Of a stretch of 64,000 nt of DNA, positions 21,956-58,870 are shown in pieces. A model generated the notes under the pieces. It saw only the letters and a program-made list of their open reading frames with translations. It ran no database searches and was not told the origin of the DNA. The translations under genes were made by a program, and so were the position numbers. The stretch's first letter is position 1, and each line of letters begins with the position of its first letter. The stretch is taken from IMG/VR virus record IMGVR_UViG_3300022555_000004; one strand, 5' to 3'. Source of the stretch: a virus (lineage: Duplodnaviria; Caudoviricetes).

Positions 21956-24900
21956 ATGAATAAAGGAATAGAAAATTCACAATTGAGTGAAATGGCAAAA
22001 AGAATATTTTTGGATTTGTATAGTTTCAGTGATGAAACTATTGACGATACATTCAAACGGGTTTCAAAAGAATTTGGTAACGATGATGATGCTAAATTAG
22101 CATATGACTTAATGAAGAAAAATATATGGCGTCCATCAACACCGATATTTTTTAATTCGGGGTCAACGAAAAAGATTTTTTCGGCATGTTGGGTGGTAAA
22201 CCTTGATGATAGTATGGATAGTATATATGATGTAGCAAATGTTGCAAGAAAAATCTTTCAGAGCGGTGCTGGCATTGGTATTCCTATTGGCAAGTTGCGT
22301 GAAAAGGAAGCTAATATATATGAAGGTCAGGAGAAAACTGATAATGTTCCCAGCGGACGTTCAAGCGGCCCAATATCATTTATGACATTATTTGATGCTG
22401 TTGGGGCAACAACAAAATCTGGTGGTAGAGCAAGACGAGCAGCTATTATGTGTGCTATGCCCATAAACCATCCTGATATTATGGAATTTATCGAATGTAA
22501 AAGTGTTGATGGTGTGTTGTCAAATATGAATATATCTGTATCTGTTACAGATGACTTTATGCAAGCATTCAAAGATAATATACCATATTCTTTGATATCA
22601 CCCGCCAATGGCCCTGTAAAGGAAATAAATGCTAGAGTTATTTGGGATAAGATTGTTGATATGGCACACAAGACTGCCGACCCTGGCGTTTTGTTTATTG
22701 ATACTATCAACAAATTCAATCCTCTGAAAAAAATATTGAAAATTGATTGCACAAATCCTTCGTTGAGGGCAGGAACAAAGGTTATTACTGATGGTGGTAT
22801 ATATCCGATAGAACAATTAGAAAACAAAAAATTTCTTGTTATAAATCAAAAGGGTGAATATTCACCAGCAAAATGCTTTTTATCAGGAAAAGAGAAAGAA
22901 TTGTTTGAAATAACATTAATGGGAGGTAAAAAGTATTATTCAACTGCCGAACATAAATGGCCAGTGTTGAATAACAACATATATGAAAAAAGACAGACAA
23001 CCGACCTCAAATCAGGCGATTACCTACCTATTGTAAGAATGAATTCTCTTGGATATGGTGTGAAGGGCAATTATGATGATGGTTTCGTTATTGGATGGAA
23101 TCTAGGAGATGGATGGATAACAGATAGAAAGGATAATGGTAAACGTCAGTATGGGTTTATATTTAGTAATGAAGATATTGAAAATGGAATATATGATAGG
23201 GTGATGAAAAAAATAACATCAATAACAAATAAAGTATATAATCCTTCAAAGATAGATGGTTGCATTGAATTTAATACAACAAATAATGATTTAGATACTT
23301 TCTTTAGGTCGTATGGTGTTGATAAAAAATCAACTGGGATGCCTTCTAGTGTATGGACAACAGCATCAGAGGAATTTAGAAAAGGGTTGATTGACGGTTT
23401 ATTTTCATCAGATGGTTATGTCGATAAATCTGGAAGCCGATGTGTTTTTTGCAGTAGTAATTATAAATTAGCATCAGATGTTTCAGAAATATTAGGATTT
23501 TATGGAATCAAAACAAGATTAACAGAGTCAACATCATCTAATATATCGTTTCCAAATGGAAAATTATATGGCAGAGCTTATACTAGATATTTCGTACAAT
23601 TGTTCACATCATCATTGATGCATTTTAGAGACATATTTACTCTTTCAAATAATAGGAAAAATGAGTTGATGTGGATGAAAAAATCATTAAATAAAGGTGG
23701 AATGGTATATGATAATATTAAAATAAAGAGTATAACCAAAACAGATATAAAAGAAGATGTGTGGGATATTAGTGTTTTTGATGATACACATACTTTTAAA
23801 CTTTCTCATGTGATCACAGGAAATTGCGGCGAACAGCCTTTGATTCCATATACATCTTGTAATTTGAGTTCAATCAATTTACATAGATTTTGTAGTAATG
23901 ATGGATATAATTTTGATGGACTATATAAAACAGCATACAATGTTACAAGATTGATGGATAATCTTATTGATAATATGGAATTTCCAGATGAACGGTTCAA
24001 AATTAATGTATTGAAGTATCGTCCAATAGGTGTTGGTATTATGGGGTTGGCGGACACTTTATATGAAATGGGTTTGCCATATGATGATAAAGAAGGACAG
24101 ATATTTGCTGAAAAATGTATGAAGATTGTTACTACAGCCAGCTTAGAGGCTAGTTCTGATATAGCAAAGGAAAAAGGAACATTTACTGATTATAAACTTG
24201 TAGAAGATGATGTTTTAGAAATTGTATCTTCTTTTATTGATGACCCATCAGTATTAGAAAAAATTAAAAAATATGGTTTGAGAAATTGTCAACACACAAC
24301 GGTGGCGCCAACCGGAAGTATTGCTTTATCATGTGATTGTTCATATGGTATGGAACCGAGTTTTGGTTTAGTATTTCAAAAAAGATTGGTTGAATCTGGT
24401 GATACATATATTTTAGTCAATCCAATATTCAAAAAGAAGTATGAAAACGAATCATGGTATACACCTGAAATGATTGAGAAAATCGTTCAAAACGGAGGGT
24501 CATTGAAGGGTATTAGAGGAATACCAAAAGAAGTACGTGAAGTATTTGTTGTTGCTCATGATATTAAAGCTAAGGATAGAATTGATATGCAGTCTGTATT
24601 ACAAAAACACGTATCGACTGCCATTAGTAGCACGACAAATTTACCATCCACAACAACAAGGGATGAAATATCTGAAATATATAGATATGCTTATCAAAAA
24701 GGACTGAAAGGTGTTACAATTTATAGGGATGGTTCTAAAAAATTGCAACCCATTTCTTTTTCAAATAAAGAGAAAGTAGAGGTTGTTCCTAATTTTAAAC
24801 GACCTACAAAATTATTAGCAGTTAGACATGAAGTTGAAACCGGCAATGGTAAAATGTATATCATCGTATCAACACATGATGGCAAACCTGTAGAAGTTTT

Positions 24901-25258
24901 TCTTTCAATGGGTAAATCTGGACAATTATTCAATAGTTTTTGTGAGGGTCTTGGAAGAACCGTATCCATTGCGTTACAACACGGAACGCCGGTAGCGGCA
25001 ATCATCAAAACCCTTGAAGGAATAAATTCAGACCGTCCTAATTGGTTCAGGTTTGAGGAAACAGATAAAAAGCCAACACAAATATTGTCGATTCCAGATG
25101 CTATAGCAAAATTATTGGAACGATATTACCTGAATGATAATAAAATCATCAATGTTGAATCAGAAGGTGAATTATGTCTAAAATGTGGTAGATATGCTGT
25201 TATACCTTTTGAAGGATGCCATATATGCACATCATGTAATGATAGTCGGTGCGGATAA
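21956..25258 (+). CDS. nrdJ: class II (B12-dependent) ribonucleotide reductase with intein
   Basis: SACWV, GGRARRAA, NP|CGEQPL, YRPIGVGIMG, TVAPTGS, C-terminal TSCPD-like domain and Zn ribbon. Confidence 0.9.
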   Translation: MNKGIENSQLSEMAKRIFLDLYSFSDETIDDTFKRVSKEFGNDDDAKLAYDLMKKNIWRPSTPIFFNSGSTKKIFSACWVVNLDDSMDSIYDVANVARKIFQSGAGIGIPIGKLREKEANIYEGQEKTDNVPSGRSSGPISFMTLFDAVGATTKSGGRARRAAIMCAMPINHPDIMEFIECKSVDGVLSNMNISVSVTDDFMQAFKDNIPYSLISPANGPVKEINARVIWDKIVDMAHKTADPGVLFIDTINKFNPLKKILKIDCTNPSLRAGTKVITDGGIYPIEQLENKKFLVINQKGEYSPAKCFLSGKEKELFEITLMGGKKYYSTAEHKWPVLNNNIYEKRQTTDLKSGDYLPIVRMNSLGYGVKGNYDDGFVIGWNLGDGWITDRKDNGKRQYGFIFSNEDIENGIYDRVMKKITSITNKVYNPSKIDGCIEFNTTNNDLDTFFRSYGVDKKSTGMPSSVWTTASEEFRKGLIDGLFSSDGYVDKSGSRCVFCSSNYKLASDVSEILGFYGIKTRLTESTSSNISFPNGKLYGRAYTRYFVQLFTSSLMHFRDIFTLSNNRKNELMWMKKSLNKGGMVYDNIKIKSITKTDIKEDVWDISVFDDTHTFKLSHVITGNCGEQPLIPYTSCNLSSINLHRFCSNDGYNFDGLYKTAYNVTRLMDNLIDNMEFPDERFKINVLKYRPIGVGIMGLADTLYEMGLPYDDKEGQIFAEKCMKIVTTASLEASSDIAKEKGTFTDYKLVEDDVLEIVSSFIDDPSVLEKIKKYGLRNCQHTTVAPTGSIALSCDCSYGMEPSFGLVFQKRLVESGDTYILVNPIFKKKYENESWYTPEMIEKIVQNGGSLKGIRGIPKEVREVFVVAHDIKAKDRIDMQSVLQKHVSTAISSTTNLPSTTTRDEISEIYRYAYQKGLKGVTIYRDGSKKLQPISFSNKEKVEVVPNFKRPTKLLAVRHEVETGNGKMYIIVSTHDGKPVEVFLSMGKSGQLFNSFCEGLGRTVSIALQHGTPVAAIIKTLEGINSDRPNWFRFEETDKKPTQILSIPDAIAKLLERYYLNDNKIINVESEGELCLKCGRYAVIPFEGCHICTSCNDSRCG
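22760..23824 (+). mobile_element. intein with LAGLIDADG endonuclease (355 aa)
   Basis: TNP|SLRAGTKV...HVITGN|CGEQ; IGWNLGDG and LIDGLFSSDG motifs. Confidence 0.9.
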
Positions 25259-25888: not shown

Positions 25889-25966
25889 ATGAGTATAATG
25901 TTAAATGAGAACAGCGGCAGTAGAGTATGGTTTTCATCGGATTATCATTTTGATCATATTTTTTGA
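25889..25966 (+). pseudogene. truncated 5' remnant of metallophosphoesterase gene
   Basis: MSIMLNENSGSRVWFSSDYHFDHIF*; same peptide start recurs at 26621. Confidence 0.85.
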
Positions 25967-25974
25967 AATATTTT

Positions 25975-25982
25975 TATAAATA
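25975..25982 (+). promoter_or_regulatory. T4-type late promoter
   Basis: TATAAATA upstream of HNH gene. Confidence 0.7.
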
Positions 25983-50907: not shown

Positions 50908-52170
50908 TTACTTCTCCGGTGGATATATTTCTAAATTCGGTAATGGAAATATAAATTTTGTTCCAGACGCAATGGCATCCTTCTCTCGTTCTAAGATTTC
51001 TGTTTTGAAGTGCCAAGGGCCTACTAGATAATAATCTGGCTTCATTTTTCTTGATTCTTCTTCACTAATTATTTCGATATTAGTACCTAGTGTATGTGCA
51101 CCAAATTTATCTGCATTTCGTTCAGCAGCATATGGAATTAGGTTGTTATCAATTCTAGCTGCTTGTAACAACGTATTTACCTTTGTAGATGCGCCATAGA
51201 GATGGACTGTTTTTCCATTTGCTTTTATATAATGAATCATTCTCAAAAGATTATTTAGAATTGAATAAGTTCTATCAGCAAACTCGTTATATGGTGTTAT
51301 GTCATCTAATGCCATATCAAATTCTAAATTTCTAAGTTTATTAATATTTTCATGTGATATACAGAAATTATTACATCTTTTCTTTACAGCGACACATTGG
51401 ACACTACCACCATTTATATCATTCAACGTGGCATCAATAAGTTTCATGCCACATGTTTCTAACAAGGATTCAATAACGGATAAACTATAATAGAAAATAT
51501 GTTCACCACATACTGTATCAAAGGCATTCATTTGTAACATAGTAGGTAAATATGACATTTCAAAAATCCATATTCCATTATCACTCAATATGTGTCTTAT
51601 GTTATCAATAAATGTTTCTGGATTTTCTAGGTCATATAATACGGCAATAGATGTTATAATATCGAATTTTATATTTTTCAGTTTTTCGGTTGGAAAGAAA
51701 TCCTTTATAACTGTTACAGAAGGATCTTTGATAGAACATACAACACTGGATGGATCTACAGCATATTTTCTATAACAAGACGGATAATATGATAATAATG
51801 TACCATCATTAGCTGCTATATCAAGGACATTTATTAGATGTTTCTGTGTTATAGGTGGAATGATGTTTGTAGCCATATCTACAATTGATTTTAGATGGTC
51901 TCGCATCGTTTGTGTTGTTGCTGATACATACCAATATTCATTATATAGAATATATGGCGGAATTGTCTTAGATAGTTGAACCGCTCCACAAGCATTTTTT
52001 CCTTTTGTTGTATCACACCACATCAATTCTAAAGGAATTTTTCTATGTGATGGTTCTGGTCTATTGGGATGACAAAACGATCCTTGTAAATATTGTTCTC
52101 TTAAATCAAGGATTGGTGTTAGTTCACTATCACATATTCTGCAATTTTTAACATGTTTCAATCTGTTCAT
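50908..52170 (-). CDS. NDP-hexose C-methyltransferase
   Basis: CRIC...LDIAANDG, FDT.CGEH, YGASTK.NT, VGPWHFK.EI. Confidence 0.88.
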   Translation of the reverse strand: MNRLKHVKNCRICDSELTPILDLREQYLQGSFCHPNRPEPSHRKIPLELMWCDTTKGKNACGAVQLSKTIPPYILYNEYWYVSATTQTMRDHLKSIVDMATNIIPPITQKHLINVLDIAANDGTLLSYYPSCYRKYAVDPSSVVCSIKDPSVTVIKDFFPTEKLKNIKFDIITSIAVLYDLENPETFIDNIRHILSDNGIWIFEMSYLPTMLQMNAFDTVCGEHIFYYSLSVIESLLETCGMKLIDATLNDINGGSVQCVAVKKRCNNFCISHENINKLRNLEFDMALDDITPYNEFADRTYSILNNLLRMIHYIKANGKTVHLYGASTKVNTLLQAARIDNNLIPYAAERNADKFGAHTLGTNIEIISEEESRKMKPDYYLVGPWHFKTEILEREKDAIASGTKFIFPLPNLEIYPPEK

Positions 52171-52173
52171 AAA

Positions 52174-54165
52174 TTATCTCCCATTATATTTAAGTTCTTT
52201 TTCAGCCAAGGCCATATCATAATCTATCATTAGAGAAACCATATCAGCAAAAGATATTTCTGGTTCCCATCCTAATATATTTTTTATTTTAGTTGAATCG
52301 CCACATAGATAATCGACTTCGGATGGTCTGAATAAATTTTTATCTATTTCTAGGTATTTATATGGATCTAGATCTAATTTATTGAAAGCGATTTCTAAAA
52401 AATCTCTGACCGAATGTGCCGATCCACTACATACAACAAAATCATCTGGTTCAGTATGTTGTAACATCATCCACATGGCACGAACATAATCTCTTGCATG
52501 GCCCCAATCTCTATGGGCATCTATGTTTCCTAATGTTAATTTATCTTGTAGTCCTAGTTTTATTCTGGTTGCTGCTCGTGTTATTTTTCGTGTTACAAAA
52601 TTTTCGCCGCGTCTTTCACTATTATGAACCTTAAATAGATTTGGCCCTGTTGCAAATGTTTTACTTTCAGTTTGTATATCAAAAAACTCATTTCCCGATG
52701 TATCTATTATATTAATAATCTCATTCCTGTTTTTTGTTACACCCTTACCGAATTTACAATCAATTTTATCTGTTGTAAAACATGTATAATAATATCGTTT
52801 ACCATCCCTATATTCACATTTAACTTTAGGTCTTTGAATTGAGAATGATTTGAATATATAAATTAAACCAAGACATAATGTTGCAGATGATGTCGTAAAT
52901 CCTTTATATTCATATTGTTCATTTCCCTTTTTTCGTCCGTCAGCCGCATAATAACCATCAAAGAAGGCTTTTTTAATTTCTATTGATGAGTTTAGTATAT
53001 ATTTTGGGACTCTTTTTTCTTTATTTTTTGTATATAATAAGCTTCTCAACCATTGACATAATGTTTTTGGACAATTAAATTTTAATGACCATATATCATT
53101 CTTACAATTTTCATATTGGCCGGGCCCACAATTAGACAGTTTATATTGAATACCATATAATGATGAGAACATATCACCATATACCACAAGTTCTTCCTTA
53201 TCACAACCTGTTAATCTTATTTCAGTTCCTTCGGATATACTGCCATCACCACATACAAATCCTAAAAACATGGCAAGTTTTGTATCACTTGATAATGTTG
53301 TATTTTGTGATGGATATGATATATCAAAGACATTATCACCTATTTTCCAATCAGATGTATATATTTCATTATCATTTTCATCAAAAGCAACATGGTCTAA
53401 TGTTGCCTCGTAACAAGATGATACGGTTTGAACCAGTTTCATAGGTTTGTTTTTTTCTTGATATGATGTTCCACCTATTATTTTAGTAAACTCTAAGCCA
53501 TTCCATACATCACATTTTTTATAGTAATCTAATATTCCTTCCCATCTATGTGATTTAAATATATCTCCTATTGGTAATACATCAATTAAATTATTATCAT
53601 CTTTGATTATTAATGGACTTTCATATAAAATTGATTCATGATTGAAAAGTAATCCATTGGTAGCAAACAATCCATATGCTTTTCGATATACATGAACCAT
53701 ATGATATGAGAAGATTTTAGCTACGGCATAAGGACTTTCAGGTTTAAATAATGTGCTTTCATTTTGTGGTGGCAACGATGAACCAAACTGTTCACTGCTT
53801 CCTGCTTGATAGAACCTGGCTTTCGGGCATGCTTTTCGGATTGCTTCTAACAATCTCAATGTTCCTATTCCTGTTATATCAGAAGTAAATTCAGGAACTT
53901 CAAATGAAATCTTTACATGACTTTGCGCACCAAGGGCATAAACTTCATCAGGATTTAAACTATACATCAAATCAACCAAATTTGCCGTTTCCGCCAAATC
54001 ACTGAAATGTAATATAATTTTATCAAGTATATGGTCAATTCGACTATTACTAACACTACTTGACCTTATTATTCCATGAACAATATATCCTTTACTTAAT
54101 AACAATTCGGCCAAATATGACCCATCTTGACCATTTATACCAGTCAGGAGCGCGGTTTTCTTCAT
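52174..54165 (-). CDS. gmd: GDP-mannose 4,6-dehydratase with intein
   Basis: TGINGQDGSYLA, AQSHV..SF, YQAGSSE, SPYAVAK, FNHE|SERRG.NFVTRKI, RDWGHA. Confidence 0.95.
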   Translation of the reverse strand: MKKTALLTGINGQDGSYLAELLLSKGYIVHGIIRSSSVSNSRIDHILDKIILHFSDLAETANLVDLMYSLNPDEVYALGAQSHVKISFEVPEFTSDITGIGTLRLLEAIRKACPKARFYQAGSSEQFGSSLPPQNESTLFKPESPYAVAKIFSYHMVHVYRKAYGLFATNGLLFNHESILYESPLIIKDDNNLIDVLPIGDIFKSHRWEGILDYYKKCDVWNGLEFTKIIGGTSYQEKNKPMKLVQTVSSCYEATLDHVAFDENDNEIYTSDWKIGDNVFDISYPSQNTTLSSDTKLAMFLGFVCGDGSISEGTEIRLTGCDKEELVVYGDMFSSLYGIQYKLSNCGPGQYENCKNDIWSLKFNCPKTLCQWLRSLLYTKNKEKRVPKYILNSSIEIKKAFFDGYYAADGRKKGNEQYEYKGFTTSSATLCLGLIYIFKSFSIQRPKVKCEYRDGKRYYYTCFTTDKIDCKFGKGVTKNRNEIINIIDTSGNEFFDIQTESKTFATGPNLFKVHNSERRGENFVTRKITRAATRIKLGLQDKLTLGNIDAHRDWGHARDYVRAMWMMLQHTEPDDFVVCSGSAHSVRDFLEIAFNKLDLDPYKYLEIDKNLFRPSEVDYLCGDSTKIKNILGWEPEISFADMVSLMIDYDMALAEKELKYNGR
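52621..53634 (-). mobile_element. intein with LAGLIDADG endonuclease (338 aa)
   Basis: NHE|SILYES...FKVHN|SERRG; FLGFVCGDG and FFDGYYAADG motifs. Confidence 0.88.
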
Positions 54166-54166
54166 A

Positions 54167-54793
54167 TTATACCTCCATAAACAATTTTGTTATATCACTC
54201 TTTCTTTCTTCATTTATCCGACCATGACATCCACCATGACATTTGATACATAATGTTATTAGATTGTCTTCTGAACAATTAGATTTATCATAATCTTTAT
54301 GGTGAACTTGATTGCTTTTTTTGGCTCCACATAATTGACATAAATAGCCATCCCGCTCTCTAATTATTTTCTTCAATTTATTTGTAAATTTACCACCATA
54401 ATAAGTGAATGATGTGGATGTGCCGCCTTTCCATTTTGGATTTTTATCACCAGAACTATCCCAATGGGTTTCTTTTACTCTGTCGCTAATTTTCTTTCTA
54501 ACATCAGGTCTTTTGGAAGGATTATTATCACCTGATAGATATACATCTGAACATGGTTTACAGCAAAATTGCCTATTTCTATGTTTATATTTTATATCAA
54601 ATATTATATGACATTGTTTACATTCTATTGATATCAAAGGTGTTTGCCTTTCAATATGTTTTTTACCTTTGTTTTTTAGTCCATTATGTTTTTTGGCACA
54701 TAACCCCGAGCAAAAAGCTCTATTTTTATTTCTTTTATTATCAGGAACTTCAAAATCTACATTACATTGTTTACATTTTATTATTTTCCTCAT
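54167..54793 (-). CDS. HNH homing endonuclease with N-terminal Zn fingers
   Basis: CQLCG...VHHKDYDK.N..EDNLITLC..CH. Confidence 0.88.
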   Translation of the reverse strand: MRKIIKCKQCNVDFEVPDNKRNKNRAFCSGLCAKKHNGLKNKGKKHIERQTPLISIECKQCHIIFDIKYKHRNRQFCCKPCSDVYLSGDNNPSKRPDVRKKISDRVKETHWDSSGDKNPKWKGGTSTSFTYYGGKFTNKLKKIIRERDGYLCQLCGAKKSNQVHHKDYDKSNCSEDNLITLCIKCHGGCHGRINEERKSDITKLFMEV

Positions 54794-54820
54794 TTAATAC
54801 CCCCGTCAATATTCTTATGT

Positions 54821-54828
54821 TATTTATA
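54821..54828 (-). promoter_or_regulatory. T4-type late promoter
   Basis: TATAAATA upstream of HNH gene. Confidence 0.7.
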
Positions 54829-54869
54829 AAAAAATATTAGCCGGTAATGCCTATAATAAAATATTTTAT

Positions 54870-54917
54870 TTATTGGCCATTTATACCAGTGATCAAGGCT
54901 ACTTTTTGTTTGCCCAT
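54870..54917 (-). pseudogene. truncated 5' remnant of gmd
   Basis: AGGAG SD, MGKQKVALITGINGQ*; matches gmd start MKKTALLTGINGQDG. Confidence 0.85.
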
Positions 54918-54928
54918 TTGATATTCTC

Positions 54929-55231
54929 CTATAAGGTCTTATGTTTCTTTTGAATAAAACCAGCATCATCTAAGTTTTGCCCTGCTAATGCTGCCTTTAT
55001 CATATCAATTATTTTACCATCTATTTCGTCCATATAATTGTTACGTTGAACATTCAAATCCGTTACTTTCAAAAAGTAATCATATAATGAACGTATGCCT
55101 TCGTCCGTTTGATATTTTGCTTTGAAATCTTCAAATGATCCTCTACGTATATCATATAATTTTTCCTGCTCTGCATACATCTTTGTATTTGTTGTGGCTA
55201 GCTTGTCCACCAACGACCCTACTGTGTCCAT
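54929..55231 (-). CDS. hypothetical protein (DUF4254-like)
   Basis: DTVGSLVDKL...LNVQRN..MDEID. Confidence 0.5.
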   Translation of the reverse strand: MDTVGSLVDKLATTNTKMYAEQEKLYDIRRGSFEDFKAKYQTDEGIRSLYDYFLKVTDLNVQRNNYMDEIDGKIIDMIKAALAGQNLDDAGFIQKKHKTL

Positions 55232-55232
55232 A

Positions 55233-55847
55233 TCAATATCTCCTTTTATATATTATATCATTTTTTGTTTTGAAATCTATTGTGTAAAATGGTTCTAGTG
55301 TCCTATTTAACTTATCGGCATCAATCTTGTCAACCTCAATACAAAATATTTTAGGATAATACTTTCTATCAATTTCTAATATTCCATCTATAGCTTCTAA
55401 TTCATGCCCCTCAACATCTAATACGAATAAATCAATTTGTATATTCTCAATAAAGACCTCTGAAAACTTAACACATTCCACATCAAACGTAATATATTTG
55501 AATGTATCGTCATGTTCCACTTTATCATGATATGTCAATGAACCTATACCATATACAATGGAACTATTTTCTTTTATACAATCAGTAAATTGCGATGTTC
55601 TATGTGAATTTGATAACGCATAATTTAAGTTTCGACAATGTGGCCTGTTTTGAACTAACTGACTATATAATCTATCAACAGGTTCAATATTTATTCCTTT
55701 CCATTTTAAACATCGTTCCAAAGTGAAACATGTATTTTCTGATATACCATCAGCCGCTCCACATTCTACAAAGAAGCCGTCTTTCTTATTTCGGAAATAT
55801 CGTTTTATCAAAAGTTCATCTAATTTATTCTGTCCATAATATCTCAT
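55233..55847 (-). CDS. FkbM family methyltransferase
   Basis: YYGQ, FFVECGA.DG...NT, GINIEP, LDVEGHE. Confidence 0.88.
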   Translation of the reverse strand: MRYYGQNKLDELLIKRYFRNKKDGFFVECGAADGISENTCFTLERCLKWKGINIEPVDRLYSQLVQNRPHCRNLNYALSNSHRTSQFTDCIKENSSIVYGIGSLTYHDKVEHDDTFKYITFDVECVKFSEVFIENIQIDLFVLDVEGHELEAIDGILEIDRKYYPKIFCIEVDKIDADKLNRTLEPFYTIDFKTKNDIIYKRRY

Positions 55848-58800
55848 ATGTCAATAATCTCATTCAAATATTCTTTTGTATTTTTAGCTAAAACGATATT
55901 TTTATACATTTCTTTATTTGTATCATATAACCAATTCATTATAGGTGTGGTTTTATCATCTTTGAAACTGATTGTTTTCTTGGCAACTACACTAGATATA
56001 ACAAAGTTACCGCCTGTACCAATACAAATAACACCCTTTGCCTTATTCATAACATAACAATCGTGTTTTATATTTTCTATTTTTGGAACCGTGGCATCCA
56101 ATGATGAAATCGACAAATCAATAATATATTTTGCTCCTAAATTTTCTATAATGTCGTCATATATACAAAACGTATTTTTCTTGACATCTTTTTGTTTATA
56201 TTCGGCAACATCAGCCAGCGCTCGTTCACCAAGTATAACAATTTTATATTTTTTCCGTAAATCTTTTAATATTCCCCAAAACCCATATGATGTAATAGAA
56301 CTTTTATATTTTTTATAATCAAAGGTTCTTACTTTTGTTGTCAAAACAATATAATTATTCTCTTTTAATCCCTGTGGTAATACATCAGATACATTACAAA
56401 AGTATTTTTCTAAAGAATGGTTTTTAGGAATAATTTTTAAATCATCAACATACGTAAGTTCTTTCATATGATCATAGTCTTGGTCGTCTGTTATCGTATA
56501 TTTATCTGTATCATCAAACAATAACGACAATAGGGATGCACAGAATTTATAATATACATTGTTGCCATCCCGATAATTATCAATAATTTCTTGACTAGGC
56601 GATATATAGATTTTATCGTATTTATTTTTGATTTCATCTAAAAATAATTTGTTATATACTATATCACCAATACCCATATAAGATTTTAGTTTTAAGATTG
56701 GTTTTTTATCCATTTTTCCTAATTCTGATAACCAATAAATAAATTTATCAAAATCAATAGTCAAATAGGCATTAGATTTAACTTTACACCAACGATGATA
56801 TAATTCGGTAACTAAAGGTCGTTCATCTTCTTCCCAAAATCCTAATACCTTTCCTGCCATCAATGTCAAACAGAAACCACCACCCATACCTAGTGTTATA
56901 TTATATTCAGCGTCCTTCATATACATACAGTCTTGTTGCAGTCTTTTTAATGTTGCTGATGTTGTTGGTGTATATGATAAATCAACTATATTTTCTTTTG
57001 GAATATTGTCTATAATATCTTTGTATATAACGAATATGTTGTCTGTTTGGTTATTATATTCCGGCCAATTAGGAAGGTTCTGTTCACCTAATATAACAAT
57101 CTTATATTTCATTGATACATCTTTCAATACTTTATAAAATTCATCTTTATGTTTTTCATATGTTGATTTTTTTAATGCTCTGATCTTAGTTGTGATTGTA
57201 ACATATGGCCCAATGTTTAGATATTTACCTTTACAAATTAAACTTTGTAAGTGTTGTGGACTAACAACTTGAATCAAATCACCACCATATAATGTTTCAG
57301 TATTTCGTTTTTGAAAGGATAGATCATTATGTGATTCATAATACGGATCAGAAAACAACAATTTCATATAATCCATTATATATCCTTTCTTGTATGCTGG
57401 TGTTCTCAATTCATCAAAAAATTCGGTATTCGGAGAAATAAGAACCTTACTATATCTATCTTTAGTATAATCCATCATGGCCCTAATCAATAAAAGGTCG
57501 CCAAACCCCATATTAACTTTCATTTTGAATACTGGTTTTTTATCTAATAGTGAGTTGAGTTTTAGGAAAAATGCTTCAATATTATCATATATAAAGGTGC
57601 CAGGATAATTTTTTTGTTTGAATAATATAGGATTGACATCACATGGATTATTTTTAGAATAATAACCAATAACCTTTCCGACAGCTGTTGCCATACAAAA
57701 CGGCCCGCCATTACCAAAAGTTATGTTGTATTCAGCATCTCTCATATAAAGGCATTCTTGTTTTATTTTAGCAATCCTATTTCCCTTTATGGCATTCAAT
57801 GTTGTAAAGGTCAAATCAACTATACGGTCTTTTGGAATAACGTTAATTATGTCATAATACATACTATATACACGATCTTTTAAAATAACTTGTTCCTTAT
57901 ATTTTAAAAGTTCACGTTCACCCATAAGGACTATCTTATATTTGGCAGATAATTTTTTCAATATGTTCAAGAAACGTGCTTTTATTTGTGTGTTATATTC
58001 GGTAATTAGAAGTTCTCTTACTCTGGTGGGAATAACAAGGTATGGGCCAATATTTAACGGTTGCCCCTCACATAGTTCATCTGATAAATTTGGTTTGACT
58101 ATATCAACTCTGTCTATACTTGAAAATGTCCAAGCAAATCTTGGCGGATAGTTCTTATTAGGAACATCTATCGTATAATAAGGCTCTTTGAATAACATTT
58201 TTAACATTGACATCGTAAATGCTAAATCATCTTTATTAGGTTCTCTATATGTGTTGTATGATTCTATATTAGGTGAGATAATAACTTTTTTATATTTATA
58301 ACTTAGATTATCTAATATACTTCTGGAATATAACAAGTCGCCAATACCAAGATTGATTTTCACCTTATAAATTAAATTAGATGGTTGCTTTGTAACATAA
58401 GAATCAATGGATGGGGTTGTCAAAGCATATACAGGTAATTTACCAGCTTCTATTCTATCAATAGGAGCATATAATGTTCCACCACCACATAGTCGTATAA
58501 TTTTTTCTCGTATCTTATTATAATTAGAAGTTGCTGAAATATCCTTCAAACCACTTCTCATATTTCCTCTACGGAATATTACAGCATCAGTTGATATAAA
58601 CTTATTCTGTTCTTGTGATGAAAATGCTTTTTCGGGATCATCTATTGAGAAAACAATAACAGGACATTGTTCCTGATATAAAAAAACAATTTTTTCGATA
58701 TAATCTGTGTGTGGAGTAATATCTTTTGGCAACATAATAATCAAATCATCGTTTGATATGTTTTTTATTTTATTATTGATTTCTTTGAGCGGACGTTCTG

Positions 58801-58870
58801 ATGACAAAAGGATCACTTCGTATCCTTCTATATCGACTTTTTTATAGTCATAGGCAAAAATATAAACCAT
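55844..58870 (-). CDS. multi-module glycosyltransferase-like protein (three tandem GT9/GT-B-like repeats)
   Basis: Three ~280-aa repeats: G.GD, KYKIV..GE., A...I..G.GG. Confidence 0.7.
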   Translation of the reverse strand: MVYIFAYDYKKVDIEGYEVILLSSERPLKEINNKIKNISNDDLIIMLPKDITPHTDYIEKIVFLYQEQCPVIVFSIDDPEKAFSSQEQNKFISTDAVIFRRGNMRSGLKDISATSNYNKIREKIIRLCGGGTLYAPIDRIEAGKLPVYALTTPSIDSYVTKQPSNLIYKVKINLGIGDLLYSRSILDNLSYKYKKVIISPNIESYNTYREPNKDDLAFTMSMLKMLFKEPYYTIDVPNKNYPPRFAWTFSSIDRVDIVKPNLSDELCEGQPLNIGPYLVIPTRVRELLITEYNTQIKARFLNILKKLSAKYKIVLMGERELLKYKEQVILKDRVYSMYYDIINVIPKDRIVDLTFTTLNAIKGNRIAKIKQECLYMRDAEYNITFGNGGPFCMATAVGKVIGYYSKNNPCDVNPILFKQKNYPGTFIYDNIEAFFLKLNSLLDKKPVFKMKVNMGFGDLLLIRAMMDYTKDRYSKVLISPNTEFFDELRTPAYKKGYIMDYMKLLFSDPYYESHNDLSFQKRNTETLYGGDLIQVVSPQHLQSLICKGKYLNIGPYVTITTKIRALKKSTYEKHKDEFYKVLKDVSMKYKIVILGEQNLPNWPEYNNQTDNIFVIYKDIIDNIPKENIVDLSYTPTTSATLKRLQQDCMYMKDAEYNITLGMGGGFCLTLMAGKVLGFWEEDERPLVTELYHRWCKVKSNAYLTIDFDKFIYWLSELGKMDKKPILKLKSYMGIGDIVYNKLFLDEIKNKYDKIYISPSQEIIDNYRDGNNVYYKFCASLLSLLFDDTDKYTITDDQDYDHMKELTYVDDLKIIPKNHSLEKYFCNVSDVLPQGLKENNYIVLTTKVRTFDYKKYKSSITSYGFWGILKDLRKKYKIVILGERALADVAEYKQKDVKKNTFCIYDDIIENLGAKYIIDLSISSLDATVPKIENIKHDCYVMNKAKGVICIGTGGNFVISSVVAKKTISFKDDKTTPIMNWLYDTNKEMYKNIVLAKNTKEYLNEIIDI

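Follow-up and report, generated by a model that had tools for sequence, protein, structure and literature searches.

A displaced gmd start and a probable homing scar beside a predicted HNH endonuclease gene in an uncultured lake phage

Background

Free-standing homing endonuclease genes (HEGs) of the T4 type (Seg and Mob; for example SegG and MobE) are intergenic nuclease genes that lie beside a conserved gene, are present or absent at one site, carry neighbouring DNA with them and occur at the borders of exchanged segments; in front of them there is a candidate late-promoter box, and the proteins combine HNH and NUMOD-type DNA-binding parts in a modular fashion (PMC2988022). All these traits recur in the gmd (GDP-mannose 4,6-dehydratase) region of a 64-kb stretch of DNA from an uncultured lake phage (IMG/VR record IMGVR_UViG_3300022555_000004), which is called the window in this work. 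There, a gene for an HNH protein separates a 15-codon stub of a gmd start from a full-length gmd, which is itself interrupted by an intein. We consider it likely that the HNH gene is a free-standing HEG located 5' of gmd, and that the stub is a lineage-specific scar of one-sided illegitimate repair. The intein is an independent parasite. The locus differs from the T4-type HEGs in that its putative HNH nuclease belongs to a different protein family and in that its target is a sugar-nucleotide gene rather than a gene of replication or nucleotide metabolism.

It has been shown experimentally in T4 that homing can be one-sided, with illegitimate junctions formed at microhomology (Parker, Belisle and Belfort 1999, as cited in section 5 of PMC2988022). 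In such double-strand break repair homology is used on one side, and the other junction has little or no homology, which resembles what is proposed here. Repair of this kind would leave the old gmd start, and in the related contig L082 the old end of the upstream gene p100, as a scar. As described in that section, the T4 study used engineered substrates, whereas the window holds a natural footprint, in which microhomology at the junction is not readable with confidence.

A second parallel is the T4 element composed of the HNH gene mobA, HomR and the gene 60 bypass cassette, in which an HNH gene entered a coding region and brought a homologous substitute for the sequence around its cut site (bioRxiv 10.1101/2022.08.31.505936). 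That element has fixed boundaries in six clades, the host segment was deleted, and the gene was split into two proteins (Bonocora et al. 2011; bioRxiv 10.1101/2022.08.31.505936). In the window, by contrast, the old segment was kept as a stub and the gene is whole; a bypass element is absent, and the boundaries are not the same from one lineage to the next.

Mobile endonuclease open reading frames (ORFs) of fungal mitochondria, such as the one in atp6 of Allomyces, displace the old end of a gene and supply a substitute end from the incoming DNA. There it is the 3' end that is exchanged, and the ORF often forms an in-frame fusion with the host gene, whereas in the window the 5' end was replaced and the nuclease is encoded by a separate ORF. 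Finally, the intein of the window has counterparts in bacterial and archaeal Gmd proteins, which are inserted at the same NHE|S site, start with Ser1, end with HN followed by Ser and measure 338-349 amino acids (aa) in nearly all cases that could be measured; the copy in the window differs from these in being phage-borne. Every piece of the locus is of a known kind, and no new kind of element is revealed. What the locus offers is a natural, datable footprint of an intron-less homing endonuclease entering a gene region. Together with a mirror scar in L082, this footprint presents a sugar-nucleotide gene as a mobile module exchanged between lake phages, and it comes with a new HNH family tied to the gmd start, for which a region of cleavage can be predicted.

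Results and Discussion

A gmd start is displaced upstream of the HNH gene

The observed anatomy of the locus was confirmed and is summarized in Table 1; every feature of the gmd region is on the minus strand.

Table 1. Positions of the features of the gmd region in the window
Feature	Position	Strand	Remarks
p100, upstream gene, 100 aa	55231..54929	-	weak DUF4254-like match; left flank; clade A with L001 and L086
gmd start stub, GGAG + 15 codons + TAA	54929..54870	-	read from the sequence; at the native gmd start position
spacer between stub and HNH gene, 76 nt	54869..54794	-	contains TATAAATA and a G-rich ribosome site for the HNH gene
HNH gene, 208 aa	54793..54167	-	last codons hold the GGAGG ribosome site of gmd
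full gmd, 663 aa	54165..52174	-	Pfam GDP_Man_Dehyd (GDP-mannose 4,6-dehydratase), E 7e-113
gmd N-extein, aa 1-177	54165..53635	-	working start MKKTALLTGINGQDG
gmd intein, 338 aa, aa 178-515	53634..52621	-	Ser1, LAGLIDADG, at FNHE|S
gmd C-extein, 148 aa + stop	52620..52174	-	Pfam match and coordinates
working-gmd copy of the TGINGQ-coding patch	54144..54127	-	17/18 positions identical to the stub copy, 54890..54873

The stub is preceded by a Shine-Dalgarno sequence (GGAG, 54929..54926), starts 8 nt further on with an ATG at 54917, 11 nt past the stop codon of p100, and ends with TAA at 54872..54870. Its translation is MGKQKVALITGINGQ, all 15 residues of which fit the N-terminus of Gmd, and the frame closes after GINGQ, inside the GxxGxxG nucleotide-binding motif of that protein. 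In three relatives that lack the HNH gene (L086, L088 and L093) an intact gmd abuts the upstream gene at the position of the stub: in L088 it begins 12 nt after the p100 stop, and in L086 and L093 its ATG overlaps this stop. Since gmd begins there in all three, the stub stands at the native gmd start. An earlier note on this DNA had proposed, from the letters of the window, that the stub is what remains of an older gmd start, pushed aside by the HNH block. The HNH-less alleles bear this out: what they have is an intact gmd, not a stub plus a second copy, and the finding that the note had named as a refutation, a stub in relatives without the HNH gene, did not occur in them.

The 18-nt patch coding for TGINGQ, ACTGGTATAAATGGYCAA, occurs exactly twice in the window, once in the stub and once in the working gmd, and with up to three mismatches allowed there are 3 matches, compared with 0.24 expected by chance from shuffled sequences. 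An identity of 17/18 is mildly unusual for TGINGQ codons in AT-rich phages, being reached by 3.4% of allele pairs. Gene conversion between the two copies of the patch was considered and dropped, because identity of this degree is not rare for such codons. The stub and the working gmd start are unequal in length, and most of their first 8-10 codons are different; for this reason they are regarded as two alleles and not as the products of a recent internal duplication.

Contigs from an independent lake study of 2020 (three runs) had no mismatch across the stub (X3 record 15, 54625-55407), spanning p100, the stub and the beginning of the HNH gene, and contigs of the same study matched both intein junctions, again with no mismatch (X3 record 13, X5 record 18). 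As mismatch-free contigs of three independent runs cover the stub and both intein junctions, the arrangement is not an accident of assembly. It is true that the region is AT-rich and that the TGINGQ codons are stereotyped in such phages. Nevertheless, the fit of all residues to the N-terminus of Gmd and the location behind p100, precisely where gmd natively starts, together with the low number of patch matches expected in the window, make it extremely improbable that the stub is a short ORF that resembles a gmd start by chance, and the bridging contigs speak in the same way against a chimera of two gmd alleles.

The stub has kept a good ribosome site and a start codon, its sequence was identical in samples of 2017 and 2020, and, spanning its 3' end, a hairpin with a trailing U run can be drawn, all of which could be expected of a working upstream ORF or leader that regulates gmd or the HNH gene, be it through translation-dependent control or through a terminator hairpin. 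However, the RNA of the stub and leader folds no better than shuffled sequences (z -1.1 and -1.3), a terminator scan listed none at the stub, and no relative was found to have a gmd stub. Moreover, the stub ends 76 nt before the HNH start, a distance that makes translational coupling between the two unlikely, and the unchanged sequence in the samples is that of one near-clonal phage, which is no measure of selection. A regulatory role is on this evidence very unlikely.

In the spacer, a T4-type late-promoter box (TATAAATA) is located at 54828..54821, and the ATG of the HNH gene follows 27 nt downstream. The box occurs 23 times in the AT-rich window, compared with 15.7 occurrences expected, a mild enrichment only. 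Its position before the HNH gene would fit late, T4-type expression of such genes. A sigma-70-like match at 54809..54780 was disregarded, as transcription from it would start within the HNH ORF.

The HNH gene is linked to the start of gmd

The 208-aa protein contains two Cys-rich modules, NUMOD3-like stretches and an HNH domain at its C-terminus, and it matches PHROG families of HNH endonucleases (E 7e-16). NUMOD3 is a motif typical of homing endonucleases. In an alignment of the 16-member family, C152, H164, H165, N177, C182 and C185 are invariant and C155 is nearly so; these are the C..C, HH, N and C..C columns. Pfam HNH is matched by 12/16 members and NUMOD3 by 9/16, and in a comparison with the PDB the family profile matches IscB at its HNH domain (E 7e-8). 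Both the alignment and the profile thus point to an HNH beta-beta-alpha-metal motif with zinc-binding cysteines.

For comparison of the locus, a small set of syntenic phage contigs from lakes, sludge and sediment was recovered by protein and DNA searches. Scans of viral contigs with a single protein (HNH or p100) returned almost nothing, and alignment-based scans were needed to recover the relatives; among 50,697 phage records neither the locus nor the HNH gene had a close relative. The nearest homologues of the HNH protein (54-65% identity) are encoded directly 5' of gmd in four other lineages, represented by L001, L082, L083/L084 and L095, and the family is on this account tied to the gmd start. 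In L095 (IMGVR_UViG_3300032046_000003, a 178-kb phage contig), a 54% homologue directly precedes gmd behind a different upstream gene (L095:2980-4652). Remoter homologues (40-47%) are found at unrelated loci, as expected for a family of homing endonucleases. In the window and in L082 the geometry is identical: the stop codon of the HNH gene is followed by a single T and then by the ATG of gmd.

The HNH gene is thus present at one site, before gmd, in the window and in the four lineages named above, and it is absent from that site in L086, L088 and L093. We therefore regard the 208-aa ORF as a free-standing HEG of the HNH type, with predicted activity, whose specialisation is the start of gmd. 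In L083, a gene for a GIY-YIG/NUMOD3 endonuclease (L083:1592-2419) lies just upstream of the p100 homologue, and this contig therefore has two nuclease genes within 1.8 kb.

No sequence difference between HNH-linked and HNH-free gmd was evident among the few alleles available. In L083 and L084 the HNH-linked gmd has GINGQVG, not GINGQDG, in its nucleotide-binding motif (L083:3397-3585 and L084:804-1103), a change that might protect against cutting. Both gmd starts of the window are equally similar to the gmd start of L093, and this comparison does not show which of them is native. The sole hint is the tetrapeptide LITG, shared by the stub and L086, a clade-A relative (LISG in L001), where L093 and the working copy have LLTG.

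A block containing gmd was exchanged in L082 and probably in the window

Two clades can be told apart among the p100 proteins, namely A (window, L001, L086) and B (L093, L082, L088, L083). The p100 of L082 belongs to clade B (80% identity to L088), whereas its HNH protein and Gmd pair with those of L001 (74% and 88/82% identity, respectively). In the gmd tree the L001+L082 pair has support of 100/99 and the grouping shown by the flanks is rejected in the approximately unbiased (AU) test (p-AU 1.4e-4); in the p100 tree it is the L001+L082 pair that is rejected (p-AU 4e-4). Directly after the stop codon of the resident clade-B p100, L082 has a leftover of the 3' end of a clade-A p100 (EEKHKTL and stop, L082:5918-5941), and this leftover passes into a leader whose homology to the L001 leader is clear (alignment score 96, shuffle mean 17). 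The left junction of L082 is thus in the p100-gmd spacer, and its leftover derives from the upstream gene. These results demonstrate the exchange of a block in L082, which would extend from the end of the donor's p100 through the HNH gene into gmd and appears to have been joined illegitimately on its left side, as a mirror image of the event that left the stub in the window.

The conflict between the trees of the linked genes and those of the flanks is clear for L082; for the window it is suggestive only. The window+L093 pair is rejected by the p100 data (p-AU 2e-11), and the window gmd is nearest to that of L093, with 83/81% identity in the exteins, 74% in the intein and support of 92/95 in the nucleotide tree. 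For the downstream methyltransferase, identity is 61% between the window and L093, 60% between the window and L082, and 72% between L093 and L082. The earlier note had described a replacement of the 5' end of gmd. As stated there this is not supported: the whole window gmd, beyond its first 13 codons, groups with that of L093, whose flanks are distant.

How regular the inserted segment is bears on the question whether the spacer, the HNH gene and a spare, recoded gmd start form a discrete cassette, which would insert regularly after GINGQ and leave the old start upstream; relatives lacking the stub would then be products of later deletions. The layout of the window is compatible with such a start-replacing unit: the working start lies downstream and the old start upstream of the HNH gene, so that the incoming DNA supplied the substitute gene end, and the ribosome site of gmd is embedded in the 3' end of the HNH gene. 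The same layout is seen at another place in the window (case 1), in agreement with the earlier note, and the MobA element has a homologous replacement region (bioRxiv 10.1101/2022.08.31.505936). Case 1 (25889-26700, plus strand) opens with a stub of 25 codons, followed by TATAAATA and by an HNH gene that matches Pfam HNH (E 4e-5); the gene start then appears a second time, with a TGA-bearing insert inside, in front of a metallophosphoesterase gene.

The relatives, however, do not share these boundaries. A gmd stub is lacking from all four of the other lineages with the HNH gene (L001, L082, L083 and L095), in which this gene lies directly between the upstream gene and gmd. The left junction is not constant among the HNH-bearing lineages, as is best seen in L082 with its leftover from the upstream gene, and over the first 13 codons the HNH-linked gmd alleles are no more alike than the HNH-less ones. 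In addition, it is the whole gmd of the window, and not its start alone, that groups with L093. A regular cassette is therefore doubtful, and we find it equally unlikely that such a mobile unit inserts in the codons of the Rossmann motif, rescues gmd by 5' replacement and is reused by different nucleases, here and elsewhere, with the end of the stub as the exact cut site. If it did exist, it would be the 5'-end counterpart of MobA/HomR and of the mitochondrial ORFs with substitute termini. Of the 5' replacement described in the earlier note, the supply of a new start downstream of the HNH gene stands, whereas a cassette that always includes the duplicated 5' end is not supported, given the four stub-free lineages and the varied left junctions.

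Proposed origin of the stub

One-sided repair during the arrival of a free-standing HEG would account for the stub as follows. The HNH endonuclease most likely cuts HNH-less gmd in its conserved 5' coding region, around the codons of the GxxGxxG motif, and would spread by intronless homing, in which repair of the break copies the nuclease gene together with linked gmd DNA. The ancestral gmd presumably began right after p100, and a break would have occurred in it at codon 15 or immediately beyond. Homology to an HNH-bearing donor would then have served to repair the right side, while on the left the end was joined, illegitimately, to donor sequence that lies upstream of the HNH gene. As a consequence, the old start would persist as a translatable but functionless 15-codon stub, its role being taken over by the HNH-linked gmd start. 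The whole gmd and its intein probably arrived with or near the same event.

From the position of the stub end, it is reasonable to place the cleavage near ACTGGTATAAATGGCCAA. Since the stub is read as the remnant of a break at or after codon 15, its end gives a lower bound for the cut position. In L082 the junction lies some 10 nt ahead of the gmd ATG, which would agree with more extensive resection. The phage encodes UvsX-like and gp46-like recombination proteins.

A number of points weigh against this scheme. Taken on its own, the HNH protein of the window matches Pfam HNH below the threshold (E 2e-3). The working gmd has the same 18-nt patch as the stub, and thus a recognition site located wholly inside the patch would leave the genome non-immune. 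AU tests on the window gmd do not reject the alternatives (p 0.07-0.36, with 0.07 in the test that bears on the window+L093 pair); that the whole gmd of the window is foreign to its flanks is thus probable, with moderate support. The stub-free relatives do not strictly exclude a regular cassette, because a stub could have been lost by deletion. Finally, the homology between the spacer and the HNH leaders of the relatives is marginal (p about 0.02-0.16). In a local alignment, the spacer and the L001 leader are weakly collinear (p about 0.02-0.03 against shuffles), which would set the junction at the CAA/TAA boundary, a placement as marginal as the similarity itself; the exact left junction and any microhomology at it are for this reason uncertain.

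The intein of Gmd is independent of the HNH gene

The gmd intein has the residues of a class-1 intein: it starts with SILYESP, has TLDH in block B, and ends with FKVHN, after which the extein resumes with SERRG. Two LAGLIDADG motifs with acidic residues are present, LGFVCGDGS and FFDGYYAADG (ending in GDG and ADG), and the endonuclease part matches Pfam LAGLIDADG_3 (E 3.6e-6) and, weakly, V-ATPase inteins in the PDB (E 1e-3). The insertion is in frame at a conserved site, as NHES..RRG is uninterrupted in L001, L082 and L088. By these features the intein looks splicing-competent, and its endonuclease, like the HNH protein, is predicted to be active. Contig joints that skip about 1.3 kb were set aside; they came from unrelated gmd genes without an intein, and their ends do not coincide with the boundaries of the intein.

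L093 is free of the HNH gene, yet a homologous intein (74% identity) is found at the same site of its gmd. Conversely, L001 and L082 have the HNH gene without the intein; L083 has the HNH gene as well, on a contig that breaks off within gmd. Both elements are thus present or absent at fixed sites, and the occurrence of either one alone indicates that they are independent parasites. The view of the earlier note that gmd carries two parasites, the HNH gene and a Ser1 LAGLIDADG intein at FNHE|S, is in agreement with this distribution.

In protein databases, a homologous intein was found in at least 59 other Gmd clusters formed at 90% identity, bacterial and archaeal ones included, and most of these inteins are 43-57% identical to that of the window. 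Both junctions fit strict patterns of the NHE|S site in 40 clusters, and all but one of the rest fit at one junction. Intein-bearing Gmd entries include those of Deferribacter abyssi and a Methanophagales archaeon, and one protein has two inteins. The database check suggested by the earlier note thus returned the same insertion site in other Gmd inteins. As the allele is already in public protein databases, the intein is not new as a kind; the window adds a phage copy of a widespread Gmd intein. Literature searches found no paper describing this intein allele of GDP-mannose 4,6-dehydratase, the one match being concerned with UDP-glucose/GDP-mannose dehydrogenase.

In short contigs of a freshwater sediment run of 2025 (X6) that align with window positions 53129-53647, the intein core is 97-98% identical to that of the window and the exteins are 81-86% identical, a contrast that gives a weak hint of recent intein movement. 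The C-methyltransferase gene that adjoins gmd in L088 (L088:4802-7087) contains a 339-aa Cys1 LAGLIDADG intein (residues 124-462); its homologue in the window (50908-52170) is without an intein. In the window, the large subunit of ribonucleotide reductase (1100 aa, 21956-25258, plus strand) has an intein at about residues 291-620 (Pfam Intein_splicing and LAGLIDADG_3), and the phage therefore has at least two inteins.

A protein of 1008 aa encoded further upstream of p100 (55844-58870, minus strand) has no Pfam match and consists of about three internal repeats; it is conserved at the upstream position in L001, L082, L088 and L093.

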